From: Oscillospiraceae bacterium
GTDB lineage: Bacteria > Bacillota > Clostridia > UMGS1883 > UMGS1540
Reading direction: 5' to 3'
NCBI GenBank assembly: GCA_015068765.1
Contig: SVJY01000004.1
Coordinates: 8,888 to 72,887 of the forward strand
Length of the DNA stretch: 64,000 bases
The stretch's first letter is position 1. Each line of letters starts with the position of its first letter. Made by a program: the position numbers and the translations under genes. This document shows, piece after piece, positions 23,162 to 58,297 of the stretch. The notes under the pieces were generated by a model. It worked only from the letters and a program-made list of their open reading frames with translations, was not told the DNA's origin and ran no database searches.

Positions 23162-24046
23162 CTAATTTTCAAGGCAAGACAATAGAGCTTCCATGTTCTC
23201 TTCGGCGTACTCGATTTCCTCCGAATATGCCCTTGCCGCCTCCCTTACGGGCACGCCGGTAAGGGACAGGATAAAGCGTGTGGCATGGAGGGCAAAGGCA
23301 AGACGTGCTCTGTACTGTCCGTCCACAAGGCCACCGGGGAAATGCCTGCACAAAAAATAGGCAAACAGCCGGGGTGCATATGTTTCCGAAAGGGTGATGG
23401 CATCCCTTGCCCCTTCCAGCATTTTGAGCCAGTCATCGTGCAGAATTAAAAGACCGCCGTAAAAATCCCGCCACGCTTTTGCTGATTTTTCCGGTAAGGT
23501 AACGGTACACCGCCGGGCAATCTCTTCAAACCGTTTTTCCACAGGCACAGTGATGTCATACGCCATATCCAAAAGCCGATCCCTAAGGGCAAGCACCTGC
23601 TCTTCTTCCGGCGTAAGCTCCTCTTCGCCGTCTCCGGAAAAAAGAAGAAACGTTGGCTTTTCTGCCCGGGACAAAATCAGGTCTGCCGCCGCTTCACAGC
23701 AAAGCCCCAACCCCATTTCTATGCGACCGGTAAAAAAATTCCGGTACCGTGGGTGGTCAGTGCAGATGTGGCATAGGGCTTCCTCTCCCATTTCCAGAAT
23801 AATGTCGCATAGATTTTCTTTATTGAGAAAGGGACATCGGCGGTCAGCACCCCGAATAAAGTGGGCACCGTCCCCGTCCACGGCAATATTTTCCTGAAGT
23901 CGCCTGCCGATTTCACCGCCGACTTCTCTGTATCGTTGATACGCCGTGTCGTCCACATCAATTTCCCAGCCGATACAGCAGCTGTGCTGACACTTTCCTG
24001 CCGTACAGGCAAAATCCCGGTAATAGGAAGGGACATAAATTTGCAT
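23162..24046 (-). CDS. YkgJ/FliB-family cysteine-cluster (CxxCxxCC-type) protein
   Basis: DFACTAGKCQHSCC N-terminal cysteine cluster of the flagellin-N-methylase/YkgJ family. Start moved to MQIYVP with GGAGGAGAG RBS. Confidence 0.6.
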   Translation of the reverse strand: MQIYVPSYYRDFACTAGKCQHSCCIGWEIDVDDTAYQRYREVGGEIGRRLQENIAVDGDGAHFIRGADRRCPFLNKENLCDIILEMGEEALCHICTDHPRYRNFFTGRIEMGLGLCCEAAADLILSRAEKPTFLLFSGDGEEELTPEEEQVLALRDRLLDMAYDITVPVEKRFEEIARRCTVTLPEKSAKAWRDFYGGLLILHDDWLKMLEGARDAITLSETYAPRLFAYFLCRHFPGGLVDGQYRARLAFALHATRFILSLTGVPVREAARAYSEEIEYAEENMEALLSCLEN

Positions 24047-24066
24047 ACGTGCTCTCCTCCGCCCCG

Positions 24067-24501
24067 TCACTGTCCGTATTGCCCGGTCAGATATACAATC
24101 GCCTGCCGGTAGCCGGCAAAGCCCATACCCATATAGGTTTTTTCGCACGCCGGACGAATATAAGAAATCTGTCGGAACGCTTCTCGTTTCGTTACATCGG
24201 AGAGGTGCACCTCCACCGCTGGCAGTGCCACCGCCTTCAGTGCATCCAAAATCGCTACACTGGTATGGGTGTAGGCGGCAGGGTTAATCACAATCCCGTC
24301 CGCTTTCCCATAGGCTTCCTGGATTTTCGTCACTATTTCCCCTTCGTGGTTCGATTGAAAGACTTCTACCTCCGCTCCTGTCTCCCGGGCGGCTTCCTGA
24401 ATATAGTCCACAAGGTCTGCATACGTTTCCTGTCCGTATATTTCCGGCTCTCTTTTACCCAGCATATTCAAATTCGGTCCGTTAATCACAAGAATTTTCA
24501 T
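24067..24501 (-). CDS. aroQ: 3-dehydroquinate dehydratase, type II
   Basis: ILVINGPNLNMLGKREPEIYG signature. 144 aa. Confidence 0.92.
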   Translation of the reverse strand: MKILVINGPNLNMLGKREPEIYGQETYADLVDYIQEAARETGAEVEVFQSNHEGEIVTKIQEAYGKADGIVINPAAYTHTSVAILDALKAVALPAVEVHLSDVTKREAFRQISYIRPACEKTYMGMGFAGYRQAIVYLTGQYGQ

Positions 24502-25717
24502 ACAGTGTAAGCACCCTTTCTGTCATATCTTCCGTCTCAAAACGGTTCTCTGTGACAATATCGGCAAACCGAGCATACAGCGGTTGCCGTTTTGCATACA
24601 TTTGGTCAAGGCTTCCCTGCCGGGAAAGCGGACGTCCTGTGGTGGGCAAGGTCTCGATGGGACGCTGTAGCCAGACGATTGTGCCGTTTTGATGCAAAAG
24701 GGGATAATTTTCTGCCCGTGTCACACAGCCGCCACCGGTGGCGAGCACCGTGCCGCTTTGCATACCAAGCGTAGCAAGCACCTCCGTTTCAAGGGCACGA
24801 AAGCCCTCTTCCCCCACCTTCTCAAAAATCTCCGGAATCGATATCCCTGCCCGCTCCCGGATAACATCGTCTGCATCCACAAAGGGTCTTCCGGTCTTTC
24901 CGGCAAGCTGTCTTCCAAGTGTGGATTTTCCACAGCCGGGCATCCCGATAAGCACAATATTTTTCTGCTCTCTGCGAAGCCGGACGGTCACGCTGTCAAT
25001 CAGGCTGTCCGACAGCTTCTTTTCCCCAAAATATTCTGCACTTTCCTTCGCCTGTGCCACCAGCATGGAAAGACCGTTTGCGTGGGGAATGCCAAGGCGT
25101 TCCGCCTCTTGCAAAAGTGCCGTTTTATCCGGGTTATAAATTAGGTCTAAAACCCCACTGCACCGGGTGAAGGCTTCCAGCTTTACCGGGGAAGTGCCGG
25201 GATGCGGATACATACCCACCGGGGTCGTATTCACAAGAATATCCCCGTCGTAGTGGCGGCTGATATTATCATAATTCTCCGGGCCGCTTCTGGAAATGAC
25301 AACCACCTCTGCCGCCCCCTTGTCCCGAAGCACGGCACACGCTGTTACTGATGCCCCGCCGCTACCGAGGACGAGCACCTTTTTCCCCTTCGGGGAAATG
25401 CCTGCCTTCTCCAGCATATAAGTAAAGCCGTAATAATCCGTATTATGTCCGAAAAGCGTACTGTCCGGATTTTTGACTACGGTATTCACGCTCCCCAGCC
25501 GTCTCGCCGTCTCCGACAGTGTATCCATATACGGGACAACCGTTTTTTTATAGGGAATGGTTACATTGATGGCATCGAAGGGCTTTTCCTGCATGAACGA
25601 TGCCACCTTATCCTTCTCCTTTTCAAAAAGTGTGTAGGAATAGTCGCCGAGATAACGATGAATCTGTGGAGAATAGCTGTGGGAAAGCTTTTCTCCGAGT
25701 AAACCGCACCTTCTCAT
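24482..25717 (-). CDS. aroE: Bifunctional shikimate dehydrogenase / shikimate kinase (AroE-AroK fusion)
   Basis: N-terminal AroE (GEKLSHSYSP, NVTIPYK). C-terminal shikimate kinase with P-loop GMPGCGKST. Confidence 0.88.
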   Translation of the reverse strand: MRRCGLLGEKLSHSYSPQIHRYLGDYSYTLFEKEKDKVASFMQEKPFDAINVTIPYKKTVVPYMDTLSETARRLGSVNTVVKNPDSTLFGHNTDYYGFTYMLEKAGISPKGKKVLVLGSGGASVTACAVLRDKGAAEVVVISRSGPENYDNISRHYDGDILVNTTPVGMYPHPGTSPVKLEAFTRCSGVLDLIYNPDKTALLQEAERLGIPHANGLSMLVAQAKESAEYFGEKKLSDSLIDSVTVRLRREQKNIVLIGMPGCGKSTLGRQLAGKTGRPFVDADDVIRERAGISIPEIFEKVGEEGFRALETEVLATLGMQSGTVLATGGGCVTRAENYPLLHQNGTIVWLQRPIETLPTTGRPLSRQGSLDQMYAKRQPLYARFADIVTENRFETEDMTERVLTLYENSCD

Positions 25718-26868
25718 ATCATTTCCGAATAACTGCCCAGATACCTAAATTCCTCGCTGATTTTATCCAGCTCACACACAAGCTGCACAAAGGCTTCGGA
25801 ATACACACTGGTCTCCAGGTCAAAATAAAACATAAATTCAAAATTCCGACCGGGCATAGGACGGCTTTCCAGCTTAATCAAATTGATGCCGATTGTATAT
25901 AGCCTCGCCAACACCTTATACAGTGCACCGGCTTTATGGGGCAGTACCATCATAATGCTGGTTTTATCGGCACCTGGATAAATTTCCAGCTCTTTGGAAA
26001 TACAGATAAAGCGTGTATAATTATTGCTGGAATCCTGTGCCGCCTCGCACAGACATTTTAGTCCGTAATACTGGGCACAATATCGGGAGCTGAGTGCCGC
26101 CAAATCCCGGCGGTCAGACTCTGCCACGATTTTCGCCGCCTGTGCCGTGTTCTCCACTGTCGTAACCTTTACGTCGGGACCGAGAGAGGCTAAAAAGCCC
26201 TGGCACTGGCGGATTGCCTGTTCATGGGTGAGGATTTCCTTCACCTCAGAAAGGGCAACACCCTCTTTTGCCAGAAGGTTATGGTCCACCTTAATGCGGA
26301 CGCTTTTTGCAATATAGAACCGATGCTTCAGCATCAGGTCATACACGGTGTTCACCGATCCTGCCGTGCTGTTTTCAATAGGCAATACCCCATAACGGCA
26401 AAGCCCCTTTTCAATGGCGGAAAAAACCTTGTCAAACGTATCAAAATACATAATATTTGCACTGCCGAACATTCTGTCGCAGGCAATCTGGGAATAGGCG
26501 CCCTCCACACCTTGGCAGGCAATCATGGCACTTTGCGGAAAGTCGCGGTTCGTATTTGCCCCGATTGCTTCCACAATGGTTTTGTACAGCTCGTTTTCCC
26601 TGTCCAGCGTCTTCTCCTGATAGGAACGGCTCAGTTCAAAGAGGAGCGAATACAGCACGCCCGTATAAGAAGCAAATTTTTCCTTGGATTTTGCACGCAC
26701 ATCTGCCAGCTTTTCCCTCTCTCTTTTTGTGTCGAGAACCGGAAGACCGTTTTCCTTTTTATAGGCGGCAATATCGCCGCAGATTTCCATACGTTCCTGA
26801 AAAAGACGTATCATCTCATCGTCAATTCTGTTAATTTCGTCCCGATACTGTGATAATTGATTATTCAT
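25714..26868 (-). CDS. pheA: Bifunctional chorismate mutase / prephenate dehydratase (P-protein)
   Basis: AroQ-type CM N-terminus (LSQYRDEINRIDDEMIRLFQER), PDT domain, C-terminal ACT domain. Confidence 0.9.
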   Translation of the reverse strand: MNNQLSQYRDEINRIDDEMIRLFQERMEICGDIAAYKKENGLPVLDTKREREKLADVRAKSKEKFASYTGVLYSLLFELSRSYQEKTLDRENELYKTIVEAIGANTNRDFPQSAMIACQGVEGAYSQIACDRMFGSANIMYFDTFDKVFSAIEKGLCRYGVLPIENSTAGSVNTVYDLMLKHRFYIAKSVRIKVDHNLLAKEGVALSEVKEILTHEQAIRQCQGFLASLGPDVKVTTVENTAQAAKIVAESDRRDLAALSSRYCAQYYGLKCLCEAAQDSSNNYTRFICISKELEIYPGADKTSIMMVLPHKAGALYKVLARLYTIGINLIKLESRPMPGRNFEFMFYFDLETSVYSEAFVQLVCELDKISEEFRYLGSYSEMI

Positions 26869-26886
26869 CGTGATTTTCCTTCCTCT

Positions 26887-27987
26887 CTATTTCGTCCGCC
26901 ATATTGTTTCGCTATCTAATAATGCATCGAGTAGAACCAGTGCCGTCACTGCTTCCAATACAGGCACTGCCCTCGGCAAAATACAGGGATCATGCCTTCC
27001 CCGAACGGATAAAACCGCCTCTTCCTTTCGCGAAAGGCAAACGCTCTCCTGCTCCTTACCGACCGAAGGCGTGGGCTTTATTGCAACCCTATATACGAGA
27101 GGCATACCCGTGGTAATGCCGCCCAGCACACCGCCACAGCGATTTGTCCGTGTTTTCACCGTTGCCCCCTCAAAATAAAATGCATCGTTATTTTCGCTGC
27201 CGTATAAAGCTGCACTTTCAAAGCCGTTGCCGAAGGCAATGCCCCTTACTGCCGGTACGCCGAAGACAGCCGCCGCAATTCTCCCCTCCATCCGAGAAAA
27301 CATGGGTGCACCAAGTCCTGCCGGAAGACCCATTGCCGCCACTTCAATCACACCGCCAACAGAATCCTTTTTCTCCCGTGCTCTGTCGATCTCCGTCTGC
27401 ATTGCCATACCCTTTTGATCGTCCCATACCGGGAAGGCTTTTCCCGCTATTTGCCGAAGCATAGGTAGTTCCTTATCGGTATAGTCGGGTGCACTTCCCT
27501 CTACGCCGTGAACGGAACGGATATGGGCAAAGACCTCTACGCCCTTTTCCCGGAGCATCTGTAGGGCAATTCCCCCTGCAACAGTGAGAGGTGCCGTCAG
27601 TCTGCCGGAAAAGTGACCGCCGCCTCTGCCATCCTGAAAGCCGCCGTATTTCATCACCGCCGTCATATCGGCGTGGCCCGGCCGGGGTACGTCGCAGAGT
27701 GCCTCGTAATCTTCGGAACGGGTATTGGTGTTGCGAATGATTGCCATTACCGGTGCACCGGTCGTAATATTCTTCAAAAGTCCGGACAGAAATTCCGGTG
27801 CGTCCGCCTCCTTCCGTGGCGTAGAAAACCGGTCTCCGCCCGGTGCACGACGCTTCATAAAAGCAGAAAGTGCTTCCATGTCCACAGAAAACCCTGCCGG
27901 CAGACCGTCAATGATTACGCCGATGGCCTCGCCGTGGGATTCTCCTGCCACTTGAACCTTAATGTGGTTGCCAAATACACTGCTCAT
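26887..27987 (-). CDS. aroC: Chorismate synthase
   Basis: MSSVFGNHIKVQVAGESHGEAIGVIIDG signature. 366 aa. Confidence 0.93.
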   Translation of the reverse strand: MSSVFGNHIKVQVAGESHGEAIGVIIDGLPAGFSVDMEALSAFMKRRAPGGDRFSTPRKEADAPEFLSGLLKNITTGAPVMAIIRNTNTRSEDYEALCDVPRPGHADMTAVMKYGGFQDGRGGGHFSGRLTAPLTVAGGIALQMLREKGVEVFAHIRSVHGVEGSAPDYTDKELPMLRQIAGKAFPVWDDQKGMAMQTEIDRAREKKDSVGGVIEVAAMGLPAGLGAPMFSRMEGRIAAAVFGVPAVRGIAFGNGFESAALYGSENNDAFYFEGATVKTRTNRCGGVLGGITTGMPLVYRVAIKPTPSVGKEQESVCLSRKEEAVLSVRGRHDPCILPRAVPVLEAVTALVLLDALLDSETIWRTK

Positions 27988-29255
27988 ACCCTTTCCTTCC
28001 TTTCAATCTGTCCCCCTAAAAGGGTGAAATGCTCCCAGAATCCGGGGTAGGATTTATTGACCGCCTCCGCCCCCTGTATGGTAACCGCCTCTTTGCAAAG
28101 TATAGAAGCCACAGCCGCCGCCATGGCAATCCGATGATCGCCTGCACTGTCTACCGTACCGCCGCAAAGGGGCTTGCCCTGCACAATCAGTCCGTCCGCT
28201 GTTTCTGTTATGTCCCCACCTAATCGAGTGAGCATGGCGGAAACGGTTTTAAGGCGGTCACTTTCCTTTATCCGAAGCCTCTCTGCACCGTAAATCCGGG
28301 TCGTACCCTCCGCCGCAGTGGCAAGCACAGCTAAAATGGGAACTAAATCGGGAATCTGTGCCCCGTCAATTTCTATCCCCTTCATAGGTGCCTTCTTTGC
28401 CGTAATTCCGTTTTCTTCGTGCTGTACGGTGGCCCCAAAACGGGGCAGAAGCTCTATAATCGCTTTATCGCCTTGGAGAGAGTGTGTGTCAAGGCCCAGG
28501 ACCGTAATGCCTTCGCCTATCGCCCCTGCCACAAGCCAGAAGGCGGCGTTGGACCAATCGCCCTCCACCTGTAGCCTTTCCTTTTCGAGAAATGCCGGCT
28601 TTTGTCTGCCGGGAATTTTATAGGTTCCGTCGGCATACGTAAACCGGATACCGCTTTGCCGGAGTGCCGCCTCGGTCATGGCGATATACCGAACGGACTC
28701 AATTTTCCCGGTCAGCGTCAGCGTGCTGTCCGCCGCAAGAAGCGGCAGGGCAAACAATAATCCGCTAATAAACTGGGAGGAAACGTCGCCCGGCAGCGTA
28801 AACGCACCGCCCCGAAGCTGACCGCCACACAAAATCCCATTTTCCCCTTCTCTCGAAAGCGTCATGCCATGGGCACAAAGCTGTTCCCAAAGGGGAGAAA
28901 GCGGTCTCTGGCCAAGCCGCCCCGAAAGCAAAAATTTTGCCTGTTTTCCCAGTGCCCCTACCACCGGCAGAAGAAAACGCAGTGTGGAGCCGCTTTCGCC
29001 GCAATCCAAAAGGCATGGCGTATCTGCCGCCTGCATGGGAGATACTTTAAATCCATCCGGCGTTCGCTCCGTTCGTGCACATAGTGCAGAAAGGCACCGT
29101 GCCGTGGCATCAATATCCTCTGAGGATTCACTGCATAAAACGGTAACCGCCTCCCCTGACAGAGCACCGCAAAGGAGTAGCCTGTGTGCCTGCGATTTAG
29201 AAGCAATGCTGTTGATTCGCCCGTGTAGGGCTTGTGGGGTAATTGTTATATCCAT
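27984..29255 (-). CDS. aroA: 3-phosphoshikimate 1-carboxyvinyltransferase (EPSP synthase)
   Basis: SKSQAHRLLLCGALS and LDCGESGSTLRFL motifs. 423 aa. Confidence 0.93.
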   Translation of the reverse strand: MDITITPQALHGRINSIASKSQAHRLLLCGALSGEAVTVLCSESSEDIDATARCLSALCARTERTPDGFKVSPMQAADTPCLLDCGESGSTLRFLLPVVGALGKQAKFLLSGRLGQRPLSPLWEQLCAHGMTLSREGENGILCGGQLRGGAFTLPGDVSSQFISGLLFALPLLAADSTLTLTGKIESVRYIAMTEAALRQSGIRFTYADGTYKIPGRQKPAFLEKERLQVEGDWSNAAFWLVAGAIGEGITVLGLDTHSLQGDKAIIELLPRFGATVQHEENGITAKKAPMKGIEIDGAQIPDLVPILAVLATAAEGTTRIYGAERLRIKESDRLKTVSAMLTRLGGDITETADGLIVQGKPLCGGTVDSAGDHRIAMAAAVASILCKEAVTIQGAEAVNKSYPGFWEHFTLLGGQIERKERV

Positions 29256-29258
29256 TTT

Positions 29259-30314
29259 TCACTCCATTCCCTGCTTCAGAAAGGGAAGCAGTCCGGGCAC
29301 CGAGATTGGGTGCAGTCTGCATTTTCCGATTGTCTCCGGCACAACCAGCGTCACCGTATCACCCGTCCGTTTTTTATCGGAAAGCATGGCATCGTATAGG
29401 CTTTCAGCGGTGTATTCCGTAGCCGTCGGCAAGCCAAATATTCTGCACACCTCGGCGATTTCCGTCGCCACCTCTTCGCCGCACAAGCCGGCACGGGCGG
29501 CACTTTTCGCCATAAGTACCATGCCGATCGCAACGGCTCGACCGTGAGAAACCGCATACCGGCTGTTTTTTTCAATGGCATGGCCTATTGTATGCCCAAA
29601 GTTAAGAAGCTGCCGCACACCGATATCTCTTTCATCCCTTTGAACAATGTCACTTTTCATGGCAATACATTCGCCAATCACCGCGGTCCGATCAAATGCC
29701 GTCCCTTTTTCCTGCAAATGCGTAAACAGGGATGCACTTCCCAAAACACCGTATTTGATTACCTCTGCCACGCCGTCTGCCTGATATGCCTCCGGCAGGG
29801 TATGCAGCAAATCCGGGTCACAAATCACCGCCGCCGGCTGATAAAATGCACCTGCCAGATTCTTGCCTGCCCGAAGGTCTATTGCCGTTTTGCCGCCCAC
29901 AGAGGAGTCCACCATAGCAAGAAGGGTGGTTGGAATTTGCATATACGGTATGCCCCGAAGAAATGTGGCGGCCGCAAAGCCGGCAAGGTCTCCCACCACG
30001 CCGCCGCCCAGGGCAATCATGAGGTCCTGCCGAGTTAAGCGGTTTTCTGCCAGAAATTCTAAAAGTGTCACATATGTTTCCGCATTTTTGGAGCTCTCCC
30101 CGTGGGGAATAACAAATTTCACGGTGCGGATTCCTTCCCGGGAGAGGGCTTCCTCCAGCATGCCGCCGTAAAAACCGTCCACCGTATCATCGGTTACAAT
30201 GGCGGCATACCCGTTTTTACAGTATGGCTGTATATACTTACCCGCCGCCCCGAAGCTGCCTGCTTCCAGAAGTACATCATAGGGCTTTTCCGCGGCTACA
30301 TGTATTTTTTTCAT
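29259..30314 (-). CDS. aroB: 3-dehydroquinate synthase
   Basis: ALGGGVVGDLAGFAAATFLRGIPYMQIPTTLLAMVDSSVGGKT motif region. 351 aa. Confidence 0.93.
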   Translation of the reverse strand: MKKIHVAAEKPYDVLLEAGSFGAAGKYIQPYCKNGYAAIVTDDTVDGFYGGMLEEALSREGIRTVKFVIPHGESSKNAETYVTLLEFLAENRLTRQDLMIALGGGVVGDLAGFAAATFLRGIPYMQIPTTLLAMVDSSVGGKTAIDLRAGKNLAGAFYQPAAVICDPDLLHTLPEAYQADGVAEVIKYGVLGSASLFTHLQEKGTAFDRTAVIGECIAMKSDIVQRDERDIGVRQLLNFGHTIGHAIEKNSRYAVSHGRAVAIGMVLMAKSAARAGLCGEEVATEIAEVCRIFGLPTATEYTAESLYDAMLSDKKRTGDTVTLVVPETIGKCRLHPISVPGLLPFLKQGME

Positions 30315-31141
30315 CCGTCAATCTCTCCTTTGATCCGCCGCCCTTCCTCTAAAAGCCGGCGAAGCGTTTCTTCATCCTCCGCCTGCAGTGCGTCACGGTA
30401 TGCGGTAAGATTTTCCAAAAGACCGTCCAGCTCTTCCAAAAGGTAGGTACGGTTTTCCATAAACAGTTCCGTCCACATAACGGGGTTGAGCCATGCCACC
30501 CGGGTCAAATCCTTATAACTGCCGGCAGAAAGGCCCTTATGTGCCTTTGCCGCCGGAGATTTCACATAGGCATTGGAGACGATATGTGCAAGCTGAGAGG
30601 TAAATGCAATCTGTCTGTCGTGGCTGTCTGCATCCGTCACAGAAAACGAACCGAAGCCCAGCGGCGAAAGCACCTTTTTGATCCGATCCAAAAGTGCCGC
30701 ATCATCATATACCGGCGGTACAATAACCATAGGTGCACCCCGGAACATATCGCTCCGGCTGTACTTGAAGCCGGCGTTATGCGTGCCGGCCATGGGATGA
30801 CCGCCCACATACAGAAAGCCATGGGTCTCGGCAAGGGCAAAGCCCGTGTCGCATACACCCTTTTTTGTACCGCAGAAATCAATGACAAATTTATCCTTCG
30901 GAAACCGTGCGGCGTTTTCCTGCATATAGTCGATGACAGCGCCGGGGTAGAGACAAAGGAGAATTAAATCGCACGTCGCCAGTCCCTCCGGCGTCAAAGA
31001 CCCGTCCGCCGCGCCGCACAAGATAGCATACTCCAGCATCACCCTGTCCCGATCAAAGGCGAGGACGGTGTTCCCCGCCTCCTTGTATGCCCGTGCCGCA
31101 CTGCCGCCGATCAAACCGAGCCCAACAATTCCTACCTGCAT
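30311..31141 (-). CDS. tyrA: Prephenate dehydrogenase
   Basis: Rossmann N-terminus VGIVGLGLIGGS plus TyrA C-terminal domain. Confidence 0.88.
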   Translation of the reverse strand: MQVGIVGLGLIGGSAARAYKEAGNTVLAFDRDRVMLEYAILCGAADGSLTPEGLATCDLILLCLYPGAVIDYMQENAARFPKDKFVIDFCGTKKGVCDTGFALAETHGFLYVGGHPMAGTHNAGFKYSRSDMFRGAPMVIVPPVYDDAALLDRIKKVLSPLGFGSFSVTDADSHDRQIAFTSQLAHIVSNAYVKSPAAKAHKGLSAGSYKDLTRVAWLNPVMWTELFMENRTYLLEELDGLLENLTAYRDALQAEDEETLRRLLEEGRRIKGEIDG

Positions 31142-31156
31142 TTTCCTTCACTTCCC

Positions 31157-32155
31157 TTACAGAATTTCACGTACTTTCCTGATTTTTTCTGCCAGATGGG
31201 CAAATTCTTCCGGTGTTAGCGACTGGGCACCGTCGCAAAGGGCGTTTGCCGGGTCATTGTGTACCTCGATCATCAGCCCGTCCGTACCTGCGGCGGTAGC
31301 CGCCATCGCCATAGGCTCTACCAGCCGGGCTTTGCCCGTCGCATGGCTGGGATCGGCAATCACCGGAAGGTGGGAAAGCTCGTGTAGTAGCGGAATACAG
31401 GAAATATCCATGGTATTTCTGGTGTAGGTTTCATAGGTGCGGATGCCCCGTTCGCAAAGAATAACATTGCCGTTGCCCTCGCTCATAATATATTCCGCAC
31501 TCATTAAAAATTCCTTTAACGTGTTGGCAAGTCCCCGTTTTAGGAGAATCGGCTTTTGGGTCTTACCCAGTTCCTTTAAAAGCTCAAAGTTCTGCATATT
31601 CCGTGCCCCCACCTGAATCACGTCCACGTCCTCAAACATGGAAAGATGGTTTGCATTCATGATTTCCGTTACAATGGGCATACCGGTTTCCTTTTTTGCC
31701 TCCAGAAGGTACTCGATGCCGTCCGCTTTCAGTCCCTGAAAATCATAGGGAGAGGTACGGGGCTTGAAGGCACCGCCACGGAGGAGCGTTGCCCCTGCCG
31801 CCTTTACACTCTGTGCCACCGCAATCATCTGCTCCCGGGACTCCACTGAGCAGGGACCGGCGATAATGGCGAAGTGTCCGCCGCCGATTTTCACGCCGTC
31901 CACGTCTACCACCGTATCCTCGGGGTGGAATTTGCGGTTACACTGTTTAAAGGGGTCGGACACCCGTTTCACGCTGTCCACAATGGCAAGGCTGTCCAGA
32001 AGCTCCATGTCAATTCTGGATGTATCCCCCACAAGACCCAGCACCGTATAATCCACACCGTAGGACGGGTGTACCTCTACGCCTTGGGTCTCCAGCCAAG
32101 CTGTCAGGTGGTCAATCTGTTCTTTTGTGGTGTTCTTTTTCAGAACGGCTATCAT
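31157..32155 (-). CDS. aroF: 3-deoxy-7-phosphoheptulonate (DAHP) synthase, type I-beta, with N-terminal ferredoxin-like regulatory domain
   Basis: KDO8P/DAHPS barrel (IIAGPCSVES, KPRTSPY) preceded by a ~70-aa ACT/FL-like domain. Start at MIAVLKK (32155) with GGAGGGA RBS. Confidence 0.9.
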   Translation of the reverse strand: MIAVLKKNTTKEQIDHLTAWLETQGVEVHPSYGVDYTVLGLVGDTSRIDMELLDSLAIVDSVKRVSDPFKQCNRKFHPEDTVVDVDGVKIGGGHFAIIAGPCSVESREQMIAVAQSVKAAGATLLRGGAFKPRTSPYDFQGLKADGIEYLLEAKKETGMPIVTEIMNANHLSMFEDVDVIQVGARNMQNFELLKELGKTQKPILLKRGLANTLKEFLMSAEYIMSEGNGNVILCERGIRTYETYTRNTMDISCIPLLHELSHLPVIADPSHATGKARLVEPMAMAATAAGTDGLMIEVHNDPANALCDGAQSLTPEEFAHLAEKIRKVREIL

Positions 32156-32186
32156 ATGAATCCCTCCATGAAAATTTGTAAAATAA

Positions 32187-32215
32187 AAGGCTACACAGCG
32201 GATTTCTGTGTAGCC
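32187..32215 (-). terminator. Leader intrinsic terminator (attenuator) immediately upstream of the DAHP synthase RBS
   Basis: Minus strand reads GGCTACACAG-aaatccg-CTGTGTAGCC followed by TTTTATTTT, then the RBS and ATG of the first aro gene. Confidence 0.7.
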
Positions 32216-32243
32216 GGATATACAACACTGCAGGGTGAAGAAC

Positions 32244-32339
32244 TCACGCCATACTGTCTGCAACACAAAAATCCTTTACTTCGCGGTTTCTAAAGTAAAA
32301 GTAAAAGAAATATTCGTATGCAAAAGTATTTTTATGCAT
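32244..32339 (-). CDS. Putative Phe/Tyr-rich leader peptide, 31 aa (MHKNTFAYEYFFYFYFRNREVKDFCVADSMA)
   Basis: Starts ~27 nt downstream of a predicted sigma-70 promoter. RBS GGAAAGGG. Nine of 11 consecutive codons are Phe/Tyr. Stop lies ~30 nt before the terminator hairpin. Confidence 0.55.
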   Translation of the reverse strand: MHKNTFAYEYFFYFYFRNREVKDFCVADSMA

Positions 32340-32372
32340 GAATTTTTGCCCTTTCCTATAAAGATTATACTT

Positions 32373-32400
32373 AGTATACTCCGAAAAAATACATTTGTCA
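32373..32400 (-). promoter_or_regulatory. Sigma-70 promoter of the aro operon leader
   Basis: Minus strand TTGACA, 17 nt spacer, TATACT. Confidence 0.6.
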
Positions 32401-32423
32401 AGGAATTTTTGTATTTTTTTCCG

Positions 32424-32452
32424 TTGACAATGTCGGATAACCATAGTATAAT
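32424..32452 (+). promoter_or_regulatory. Sigma-70 promoter for the PpiC-domain gene
   Basis: TTGACA, 17 nt spacer, TATAAT, then AAGGAG RBS. Confidence 0.65.
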
Positions 32453-32485
32453 AAGACGAACATATTTCTTAAAGGAGAATACAAT

Positions 32486-33709
32486 ATGAAAAAACTGCTT
32501 TGCGGACTTCTTTGCACCACGCTCATCGGAATGACGGCTTCCGCTGCCGTCGTTGATTTTCAAATTGACCGGGCCGCTTATCAGCTTCTGGATGGTGAAA
32601 CAGTAACGGACAAAACACTGGAGGCCGCCCCCTTCGTCAACGACCAGTGGCGGACAATGGTCCCTGTACGTGCCATTTCGGAAGCCCTTGGTGCGGATGT
32701 TGACTGGGACGGCATACGCCGAGAGGTTTCTGTCCGGCAAAATGAGACGGAAATCCTTCTCTATATTGATAGCACAACCGCACTGGTAAACGGTGCTGAA
32801 ACGGCCCTAGACTGTGCCCCTGTTATCATAGAGGGCAGAACGTTTGTCCCGCTCCGGTTTGTGGGAGAGGTTCTCGCCTATAACGTAAACTATACCCCTG
32901 TTTCCAGGCACGTTGTGATTGACAACACGAAGCCCGTTCTCGTTTGCCCGAATGCCTCCTTCTCCTTTGCCGAGCTGGAGACGCTCTACCGTATGTTCCT
33001 GGAAGCGAATCAGGCACTTGCCACCCAACTGGGTATGCAGGAGGCAGAGCTTTCCAAAGCCTGTATGGACCTTGCCATCGATACGGCGACAGATGCCGTT
33101 TTGCTGAAAAATGCCTATGCTGATGTCTCCCTCTCTCCGGAGGTGTTAGGACAAATTCTGTATTCTGCTGAGACGGAAAATCTGTCTGTGCCGCTGACCG
33201 GTCTTCGGGATGTTCTGTATGAAAAGCTGTACCACGCTTCCGGCTATGCGGCGTTTGCCCATCTCGAACAGACGGTCAATCCGGAAAGCACCTATACCGA
33301 AAATTACGTCTGTGCAAAGCACATTTTAGTGGAAGACGAGGAGACGGCAAAAGCCGTATACGCCCGTGCCGTGGCCGGAGAGGACTTTGATGCCCTCATT
33401 GCCGAATACAACACCGATCCCGGTATGGAAGCGAATCCGAACGGGTATGTGTTTACAAAGGGAGAAATGGTCCCGTCCTTTGAAGAAGCAGCCTTTGCGG
33501 CGGCAGTCGACAGCATCACCGAGCCGGTACAGTCCGTATACGGCTACCACATTATCCGCCGGCTGGCTTTACCGCCGCTGACAGAAGAGCAAAGTGCCAC
33601 TGTCCTCAGCAAAATCCTAAACCAGGAGCTGGCGGCGAAGGATTATCCGCAACAGCTTATCGATACTGCCACACTGTACGCCATGGTGGGGATTGCAGGC
33701 GAAGAATAG
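32486..33709 (+). CDS. Secreted peptidyl-prolyl isomerase (PpiC/parvulin domain) with N-terminal copper-amine-oxidase-like domain
   Basis: Signal peptide, CuAO-N-like beta domain, C-terminal parvulin motif (YVCAKHILVEDEETAKAV ... GYHIIRR). Confidence 0.75.
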   Translation: MKKLLCGLLCTTLIGMTASAAVVDFQIDRAAYQLLDGETVTDKTLEAAPFVNDQWRTMVPVRAISEALGADVDWDGIRREVSVRQNETEILLYIDSTTALVNGAETALDCAPVIIEGRTFVPLRFVGEVLAYNVNYTPVSRHVVIDNTKPVLVCPNASFSFAELETLYRMFLEANQALATQLGMQEAELSKACMDLAIDTATDAVLLKNAYADVSLSPEVLGQILYSAETENLSVPLTGLRDVLYEKLYHASGYAAFAHLEQTVNPESTYTENYVCAKHILVEDEETAKAVYARAVAGEDFDALIAEYNTDPGMEANPNGYVFTKGEMVPSFEEAAFAAAVDSITEPVQSVYGYHIIRRLALPPLTEEQSATVLSKILNQELAAKDYPQQLIDTATLYAMVGIAGEE

Positions 33710-34267: not shown

Positions 34268-34397
34268 TGCATAAAAAAGCTTCCCCGAAGGGAAGCTCGC
34301 AAAACAAATCTTCTCCCTACGTTGGCATTACCCAAATCAGGTTTACGGGTCGGAACCCACTCGTTCCCTCTCAGCCGTTACGGCTCCCCGGATTTAT
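34268..34397 (-). promoter_or_regulatory. TPP (THI-box) riboswitch with terminator expression platform
   Basis: Minus strand CTGAGAGGGAACGAGTGGGTTCCGACCCGTAAACCTGATTTGGGTAATGCCAACGTAGGGAGA matches the TPP aptamer consensus. Followed by hairpin GCTTCCC-TTCG-GGGAAGC plus TTTTTTAT. Confidence 0.88.
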
Positions 34398-34403
34398 AGG
34401 TAT

Positions 34404-53938: not shown

Positions 53939-54030
53939 TTCTTTCCTCCACTTCCCTATCTATATATCCATATTATAGCATATTTCCGAAAAATAGTCTA
54001 TTCTTTTTTCAGTTTTTTTATTTTTACCGC

Positions 54031-58221: not shown

Positions 58222-58297
58222 GCGAATGTAGCTCATCTGGTAGAGCGCCACCTTGCCAAGGTGGAGGTAGCGAGTTCGAGCCTCGTCATTCGCTCCA
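58222..58297 (+). tRNA. tRNA-Gly (anticodon GCC), CCA encoded
   Basis: Cloverleaf folded by hand: acceptor GCGAATG/CATTCGC, anticodon stem CCACC/GGTGG with loop TTGCCAA, T-arm GTTCGAGC, 3' TCCA. 76 nt. Confidence 0.9.

Follow-up and report, generated by a model that had tools for sequence, protein, structure and literature searches.

The stretch analysed here, called the window below, comprises 64,000 nucleotides (64 kb) of contig SVJY01000004.1 from an uncultured Oscillospiraceae bacterium known from metagenomes (assembly GCA_015068765.1) and holds on its minus strand an operon of eight genes for aromatic amino acid biosynthesis. A putative leader-peptide attenuator with phenylalanine (Phe) and tyrosine (Tyr) codons lies in front of the first gene, which codes for DAHP synthase. 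The elements of the leader were located by reading the minus strand between 31900 and 32700 and by consensus scans. Helices are named after the paired regions (1:2, 2:3, 3:4), and Phe/Tyr codons are abbreviated F/Y. In the direction of transcription, the open reading frames (ORFs) and signals are arranged as follows:

32373 to 32401, minus strand: sigma-70-type promoter of the leader and the aro operon, with the -35 hexamer TTGACA (32401-32396), a spacer of 17 nt and the -10 hexamer TATACT (32378-32373)
32349 to 32356, minus strand: Shine-Dalgarno-like motif GGAAAGGG, 9 nt 5' of the leader ATG at 32339
32244 to 32339, minus strand: leader ORF of 31 codons plus TGA (32246-32244), MHKNTFAYEYFFYFYFRNREVKDFCVADSMA, read from the sequence and matched by homologous short ORFs in relatives
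32292 to 32324, minus strand: regulatory codon run, codons 6-16, F-A-Y-E-Y-F-F-Y-F-Y-F, with 9 of 11 Phe/Tyr (5 Phe, 4 Tyr), the proposed site of ribosome stalling
32298 to 32346, minus strand: region 1, the 5' strand of the anti-antiterminator (1:2) helix in minimum free energy (MFE) folds, spanning the start codon and most of the F/Y run
32238 to 32282, minus strand: region 2, the 3' strand of the 1:2 helix in MFE folds, containing region 2b
32260 to 32274, minus strand: region 2b, the 5' strand of the antiterminator, GGAUUUUUGUGUUGC, about 16-17 nt past the last F/Y codon
32200 to 32214, minus strand: region 3, the terminator 5' arm and the whole loop, GCUACACAGAAAUCC, partner of region 2b in the antiterminator
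32180 to 32215, minus strand: intrinsic terminator (3:4), a perfect 10-bp stem with a 7-nt loop, then the U-tract UUUUAUUUU (32188-32180), -16.1 kcal/mol
31157 to 32167, minus strand: ribosome binding site GGAGGG (32167-32162) and DAHP synthase gene (ATG 32155), Pfam PF00793 and PF18152, NCBIfam NF006421 (493 bits)
24067 to 31141, minus strand: the remaining seven genes of the controlled operon, from Pfam and NCBIfam assignments and ORF coordinates, namely
30311 to 31141, minus strand: tyrA, prephenate dehydrogenase
29259 to 30314, minus strand: aroB
27984 to 29255, minus strand: aroA
26887 to 27987, minus strand: aroC
25714 to 26868, minus strand: pheA, chorismate mutase-prephenate dehydratase
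24482 to 25717, minus strand: aroE-aroK fusion
24067 to 24501, minus strand: aroQ, type II dehydroquinase

The promoter agreed with the consensus at 11 of 12 positions in the consensus scan, and its position would place the transcription start of the leader near 32366. In a mechanically produced ORF list the same frame extends to an ATG at 32444; since this ATG is situated upstream of the promoter, the 31-codon ORF is the relevant version. Among about 128,000 windows of 11 codons in the six frames of the 64 kb, a content of nine F/Y codons was reached by the leader run alone, thus a chance origin of the run is unlikely. The terminator arms GGCTACACAG (32215-32206) and CTGTGTAGCC (32198-32189) are followed by TTTTATTTT at 32188-32180; the hairpin starts 28 nt past the TGA stop of the leader, and the terminator ends 24 nt before the start of the DAHP synthase gene. 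The promoter, the 31-codon ORF with its codon run, the perfect hairpin with U-tract in front of the ribosome binding site of DAHP synthase and the eight aromatic genes had all been named in an initial annotation, made from the sequence without database searches, and each of them was recovered, the operon content by Pfam.

The leader RNA (220 nt) folded better than its dinucleotide shuffles by 3.6 standard deviations (z = -3.6). Without a ribosome, the MFE structure was a long 1:2 hairpin (32346-32298 with 32282-32238) together with the terminator. The competing duplex of region 2b and region 3 (GGAUUUUUGUGUUGC : GCUACACAGAAAUCC) paired at 14 of 15 positions with -17.2 kcal/mol, compared to -16.1 kcal/mol for the terminator. 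A pairing of the end of the leader ORF with the terminator 5' arm was part of the initial annotation; the pairing itself was confirmed, its extent was larger than the 7 of 8 positions proposed and includes the loop. Constrained folds were calculated with a ribosome footprint of 30 nt, a size that is established knowledge. With F/Y codon 8, 11, 13 or 16 in the A site and the RNA ended at the terminator loop, the antiterminator was part of the MFE structure in all four cases. The terminator formed with the ribosome at the stop codon as well as without a ribosome. Folding yielded the mutually exclusive antiterminator and terminator that the initial annotation had asked for as a check.

For the comparison with relatives, one genome per GTDB species was scanned with the DAHP synthase; more than 599 loci were returned, and the best 80 of them (65-81 % identity) were examined. 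These were mostly from Oscillospiraceae, Acutalibacteraceae, 'Faecousia' and unclassified Clostridia metagenome-assembled genomes (MAGs), and included Sporobacter termitidis DSM 10068 (L029), whose leader reads MRNVLFTASYYFYFYFYW..., and Angelakisella massiliensis (L073). At least 67 of the 80 loci shared the arrangement of promoter, Shine-Dalgarno motif, ATG, 6-9 Phe/Tyr codons, anti-antiterminator, antiterminator and terminator. Within 450 nt upstream of the DAHP synthase gene, a short ORF with at least six F/Y in 10 codons was present in 66 of the 80 loci (e.g., the leader peptides MQNLFAANFYYYYYFFTRKK and MSKLLSYTTSYFYFFNYYFFSKSSSDLCCKKV), while the reverse complement of the same upstream DNA, used as control, had mostly 2-5 F/Y in 10 codons and once six. 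In 65 of the 66 ORF-bearing loci a strong terminator was found; its distance from the ORF start is typically 105-135 nt, that to the start of the DAHP synthase gene mostly 20-40 nt. An ATG-initiated ORF spanned the codon run in the F/Y frame of 65 out of 65 loci, versus 7 and 4 loci in the other two frames. Most related leaders showed a GGAG-, GGAGG- or AGGAG-type motif within 20 nt before the ATG, as judged by eye and uncounted. Promoters with 10 or more of the 12 consensus positions were found in 49 of 65 loci, with the -10 hexamer typically ending about 28-34 nt before the leader ATG. At least two Phe and at least two Tyr codons were present in 61 of 65 leaders (medians 4 and 4), a Trp codon in a single one of the 65. 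This codon content fits the products of the operon in the window, since it holds tyrA and pheA and is devoid of trp genes; an aminotransferase gene is absent as well (Pfam/NCBIfam).

A covariance model (R1), built from a plain MAFFT alignment of the related leaders (A1), recovered two further loci from outside the seed, L058 with 93.8 bits and L034 with 83.6 bits. The leader at L058:2363-2488 has merely five F/Y in 10 codons (MACTAAKIYVSYYYFSTKK), yet it is the one that scored 93.8 bits. At L033:2375-2481, from a Faecalibacterium MAG, a Tyr-biased mini-ORF (MARYAYYYVLYGKCRA) gave a weak match of 18.4 bits, and this locus may carry a degenerating or diverged version of the leader. Loci without the element belonged to five Bacteroidaceae-labelled MAGs, Limiplasma, a termite Lachnospiraceae MAG and a few others. 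The DAHP synthases of the Bacteroidaceae-labelled MAGs (L037, L054, L059, L070 and L079) are 67-68 % identical to that of the window and have no F/Y leader, which suggests either that the gene moved horizontally and left the leader behind, or a case of mis-binning. Taken over the surveyed loci, the attenuator appears as the rule in this group of Clostridia rather than the oddity of one genome. For the Firmicutes as a whole, the initial annotation had called a ribosome-stalling attenuator of the aromatic pathway unusual. That statement is weakened, because the element is the rule in this group and leader-peptide precedents exist in Firmicutes with the histidine leaders and the predicted aroF leader of Acholeplasma (see below).

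In the window, R1 matched one copy only. The second-densest F/Y stretch of the 64 kb, SLFFFQFFYFY (8 of 11), lies at 53992-54030 on the plus strand in a T-rich spacer separating two minus-strand genes; it has no start codon and no match to R1, and as a second leader it was judged a chance occurrence. A scan across the 64-kb window for other short ORFs rich in a single amino acid and resembling leaders gave no convincing candidate.

Alignment A1 revealed a conserved core of UACUAUUACUUUUUU...AAAAAGUAAUAGCGAUUUGUGCUGCA...GCCGCACAGA...UCUGUGCGGC followed by the U-tract. Pairing and compensatory change were counted for each of the three helices and compared with slid controls and with 500 shuffles; the counts for the antiterminator were taken from a second alignment (A2), in which its columns were named by hand from the duplexes of the individual sequences:

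Terminator (3:4): 85.6 % of the cells paired, 29-48 % in slid controls; 193 double-change cells versus 64.7 ± 6.2, a value reached in 0 of 500 shuffles
Antiterminator (2:3): 71.8 % of the cells paired, 32-51 % in slid controls; 65 double-change cells versus 32.7 ± 4.4, reached in 0 of 500 shuffles
Anti-antiterminator (1:2): 76.6 % of the cells paired, up to 68 % in the -3 slide; 45 double-change cells versus 30.8 ± 3.9, reached in 1 of 500 shuffles

Thus the alternative pairings are conserved and covary in about 67 related genomes. All 13 base pairs of the terminator had compensatory changes. In the antiterminator, covariation was strongest where the 5' part of region 2b meets the terminator loop: loop columns 135-137 changed together with columns 50-52 of region 2b, each pair having 11-17 double changes (e.g., AGCGAUUUGUG/CACGAAUUGC, AGAAAUUUGUG/CACGAAUUUC, AGUAAUUUGUG/CACAGAUUAC and AGUGGUUUGUG/CACGAAUCAC). 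If the two did not pair, a terminator loop would have no cause to covary with an upstream segment. In a swap test, region 2 preferred the terminator arm of its own locus over those of other loci, with a median rank of 9 among 64 and a place in the top 10 % in 27 of 65 cases. The conserved core of the 1:2 helix consists of CUAUUACUUUUU paired with AAAAAGUAAUAG. Within this helix, column pair 35:68 alternates between A-U (27 loci) and U-A or U-G (26 loci); the change corresponds to the replacement of Tyr (UAU) by Phe (UUU) in the leader, compensated in region 2.

The spacing of these elements suits a translating ribosome. Region 2b starts a median of 16 nt (interquartile range 14-18) past the last F/Y codon in the 65 relatives, and about 16 nt downstream of the A site are protected by a stalled ribosome. 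In 44 loci the stop codon of the leader precedes region 2b by 0-17 nt, often as the UAA of a tandem UAA-UAG in AAAAAGUAAUAG. The ORF runs through region 2b in 17 loci, the window among them, and stops 0-28 nt past it; the recurrent C-terminus S-D-L-C-C-K of this read-through layout is the translated region 2b. The remaining four loci have the stop codon inside region 2b. The two layouts coexist (e.g., L046:2354-2487 and L014:2342-2487) and read the conserved AGUAAUAG in different frames. With either layout, a ribosome completing the leader peptide occupies region 2 or has just unwound it, and the terminator is free to form.

We regard the element as a classical four-region ribosome-mediated transcription attenuator, with a probability of roughly 0.88. 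The leader most likely turns the aromatic operon on only when Phe or Tyr runs short. For leader translation, stalling at Phe as well as Tyr codons and a kinetic competition between the structures, we infer the following course. Transcription would start from the TTGACA/TATACT promoter, and a ribosome would load on the 31-codon leader ORF. With Phe-tRNA and Tyr-tRNA plentiful, the ribosome would pass the F/Y codons and region 2 and proceed to the stop codon, so that region 2b is unavailable; in an untranslated leader, region 2b would be unavailable as well, since region 1 would pair with region 2. In both situations the 10-bp terminator (3:4) is expected to form and RNA polymerase to stop at the U-tract, ahead of the gene for DAHP synthase. 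If either charged tRNA is scarce, the ribosome would stall on the F/Y run and cover region 1, leaving region 2b free about 16 nt downstream. On emergence of the terminator 5' arm and loop, the free region 2b could pair with them; the terminator would not form and the eight-gene aro/tyrA/pheA operon would be transcribed. From the mixed codon run, the leader probably senses the charging of Phe-tRNA and of Tyr-tRNA. The stalling attenuator for Phe and Tyr, already proposed in the initial annotation, thus holds up in the comparison: most of the relatives keep the ORF, the codon run and the terminator, and the three helices exceed their controls.

Several observations weigh against this reading. 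In the full-length RNA with region 1 masked, the equilibrium favours the terminator by about 5 kcal/mol. A thermodynamic switch was rejected on this result in favour of a kinetic, co-transcriptional one: as soon as the 3' arm exists, the terminator state is ahead by about 5 kcal/mol, so antitermination has to be kinetic. The classical trp, phe and his attenuators are held to decide kinetically. The controls of the 1:2 helix are weaker than those of the other helices, as the -3 slide pairs 68 % of the cells. This high value is due to the repeated triplets of the codon run, and it makes the 1:2 helix the least strongly supported of the three. The antiterminator counts depend on a structure named from individual duplexes. 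RNAalifold predicted zero consensus pairs on A2, a MAFFT alignment ending before the terminator 3' arm, probably due to gappy outlier rows. The Shine-Dalgarno motif of the window (GGAAAGGG) departs from a perfect match. Finally, the aroR leader of Corynebacterium glutamicum with its Phe and Tyr codons is described as responding to Phe only, in the account given by PMC11802643.

Other readings of the leader were considered, all of them far less probable than ribosome stalling. With its triplets repeated periodically (UAC UAU UAC UUU UUU), the codon run bears a superficial likeness to TRAP sites, and the pairing retained in the -3 slide reflects the same repetitiveness. One might therefore think of a TRAP- or PyrR-type mechanism, in which an RNA-binding protein that binds aromatic amino acids reads UAY/UUY triplets and stabilises or disrupts the 1:2 helix, the ORF being incidental. 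We consider this very improbable. An incidental ORF does not account for the ATG ORF with Shine-Dalgarno motif and in-frame stop that is kept in 65 of 65 loci and in the F/Y frame only, nor for stop codons at just two stereotyped places and a region 2b that begins one ribosome half-footprint (16 nt) past the run. Moreover, Phe and Tyr codons interchange freely among the leaders, which a binding motif would not tolerate, and a candidate gene for the binding protein is absent from the operon (Pfam). Slightly less probable still is a direct Phe/Tyr metabolite riboswitch, or a constitutive partial terminator or insulator between the divergent promoters, with the F/Y ORF as a by-product of a U/A-rich hairpin. 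The folding beyond shuffles (z = -3.6) and the conserved structure would be in line with this proposal, but the leader is without the conserved unpaired nucleotides or multi-helix junctions typical of aptamers; its conservation is accounted for by codons and three mutually exclusive simple helices. For a constitutive terminator, the covarying antiterminator and the conserved translated frame would be needless.

A T-box, i.e., a tRNA-sensing leader, or another known riboswitch is the least probable of these alternatives, despite the fact that many aromatic and aminoacyl-tRNA genes of Firmicutes are controlled by T-boxes (PMC1262725). A permissive scan of 31000-33500 against Rfam 15 (E up to 10) returned two chance-level matches, caiA and mir-933, and a scan of the whole window at gathering thresholds found a TPP riboswitch and a tRNA only, both elsewhere; neither scan placed a T-box or known leader family at the aro leader. 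The TPP riboswitch is located at 34297-34400 on the minus strand (70.5 bits, gathering score 54.3), the tRNA gene at 58222-58294 on the plus strand. The Phe leader, the Lactococcus leu/phe leader and others have curated Rfam families. The 14 related loci without an obvious leader had no Rfam element upstream of the DAHP synthase gene in an Rfam scan either. The T-box and riboswitch readings were rejected on these scans of the region, the whole window and the 14 leader-less loci; the leader of about 185 nt from promoter to terminator is fully covered by the ORF and three simple helices. The absence of a T-box was already noted in the initial annotation and agrees with the Rfam results. A stalling attenuator would have been contradicted by relatives devoid of the ORF or codon run, or with a T-box in its place; 66 of the 80 loci keep the F/Y ORF, and no T-box was found in the window or in the 14 leader-less loci.

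Well known leader-peptide attenuators are those of pheL-pheA, pheM-pheST and trpL in Escherichia coli (PMC3082878, PMC11802643). The leader in the window resembles them in the short ORF close to the promoter, its run of end-product codons, the 1:2, 2:3 and 3:4 alternatives and the terminator before the first biosynthetic gene. No Rfam match was obtained for the window leader even at E up to 10, thus homology in sequence or structure was not detected. The hosts are Clostridia in one case and Gammaproteobacteria in the other. The window leader mixes Phe and Tyr codons (about four each), whereas pheL has Phe codons alone, and it governs the common shikimate pathway together with both terminal branches, whereas pheL controls pheA alone. 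The antiterminator uses the terminator loop in addition to the 5' arm, again unlike the E. coli leaders. In C. glutamicum, the aroR leader with Phe-Tyr-Phe is located 5' of the aroF operon, and Phe limitation was effective while Tyr limitation was not (Neshat et al. 2014, as reported in PMC11802643). According to that report, aroR shares with the window leader the Phe and Tyr codons before an operon led by DAHP synthase, and an increase of transcription by stalling is supported by experiments there; the organism is an actinobacterium, the regulatory codons are three compared to 6-9 in the Clostridia leaders, and the operon content differs. Given the distance, homology of the two leaders is unlikely.

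Within lineages related to the Firmicutes, the closest description is that of uORFC-13-1 (Brewer et al. 2021; PMC8632094), with 24 representatives in Acholeplasma and unassigned environmental sequences. It is a predicted upstream ORF with promoter, ribosome binding site, start codon and 'at least one' Phe codon (U-rich), found exclusively upstream of aroF and immediately 5' of an intrinsic terminator, with an additional base-paired element supported by covariation (PMC8632094). The position upstream of aroF, the Phe-codon ORF before an intrinsic terminator and the Firmicutes-related lineage are common to uORFC-13-1 and the window leader; the description of uORFC-13-1 mentions neither Tyr codons nor an antiterminator, unlike what is seen here. 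The two were compared by description only, an Acholeplasma locus not being among the 80 loci. Histidine leader-peptide attenuators have been reported for the Bacillus cereus group, Peptostreptococcaceae and Erysipelotrichales (PMC9413887, PMC2965389). Like the window leader, they employ classical attenuation in place of T-boxes, Clostridia included; the amino acid, the operons and the lineages are others, and their sequences are unrelated to the window leader. In a limited full-text search of the literature, no earlier account of an F/Y leader from Oscillospiraceae or Clostridia related to them came up, which is absence of evidence only.

In view of these comparisons we lean, with considerable reserve, towards an uncatalogued and independently arisen cis-regulatory family that is widespread in Oscillospiraceae and related Clostridia. 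In many abundant Clostridia of gut and rumen, this dual Phe- and Tyr-sensing leader-peptide attenuator would be the chief means of controlling transcription of the whole shikimate/Phe/Tyr pathway, a role played elsewhere by T-boxes or TyrR-type repressors. It would have no common origin with proteobacterial pheL or actinobacterial aroR, and possibly none with uORFC-13-1 of Acholeplasma. The mechanism itself is textbook and no concept is altered; it is the large conserved leader family that seems to be absent from the catalogues. The leader is carried by at least 67 species-level genomes among the closest 80 loci, Rfam is without a model for it, and annotation would leave the region as blank intergenic DNA. 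For a large group of gut and rumen Clostridia, most of them uncultured, the element supplies the aromatic pathway with a well-supported regulatory annotation; it also adds to the evidence that classical leader-peptide attenuation extends beyond Proteobacteria and Actinobacteria. It offers a natural case of one leader reading two amino acids with roughly equal codon numbers, while the compensated Tyr-to-Phe swaps show coding and RNA-structure constraints co-evolving in one short sequence. The covarying alignment A1 and the covariance model R1 are a ready tool for locating more copies, and the leader may be of use as a Phe/Tyr-responsive part for the engineering of anaerobes.

The eight genes of the operon overlap or are separated by at most 18 nt, and in a scan of the minus strand no terminator or promoter within the operon was convincing. 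The DAHP synthase has an N-terminal ferredoxin-like (FXD) regulatory domain (Pfam). In the Thermotoga-type DAHP synthases, the FXD domain mediates feedback inhibition by Tyr and Phe. If it acts in the same way here, the pathway would be under the control of Phe and Tyr at the enzyme and the transcript level alike. Back-to-back with the leader promoter lies a divergent promoter, TTGACA-17-TATAAT (12 of 12 positions), at 32424-32452 on the plus strand; it drives a plus-strand gene at 32486-33709 coding for a protein with a copper-amine-oxidase N-terminal-like domain and a PpiC rotamase domain. At the distal end of the operon, an ORF of the FliB-like lysine-N-methylase family (23162-24058, minus strand; NCBIfam NF038110, E = 5e-52) follows directly past aroQ. 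Because no terminator separates it from aroQ, the attenuator-controlled transcript may carry this functionally unrelated gene as a ninth one. The first good minus-strand terminator past aroQ was located at 23158-23136, and beyond it lies a perfect TTGACA-17-TATAAT promoter (23102-23074) for a YycF-like response regulator.

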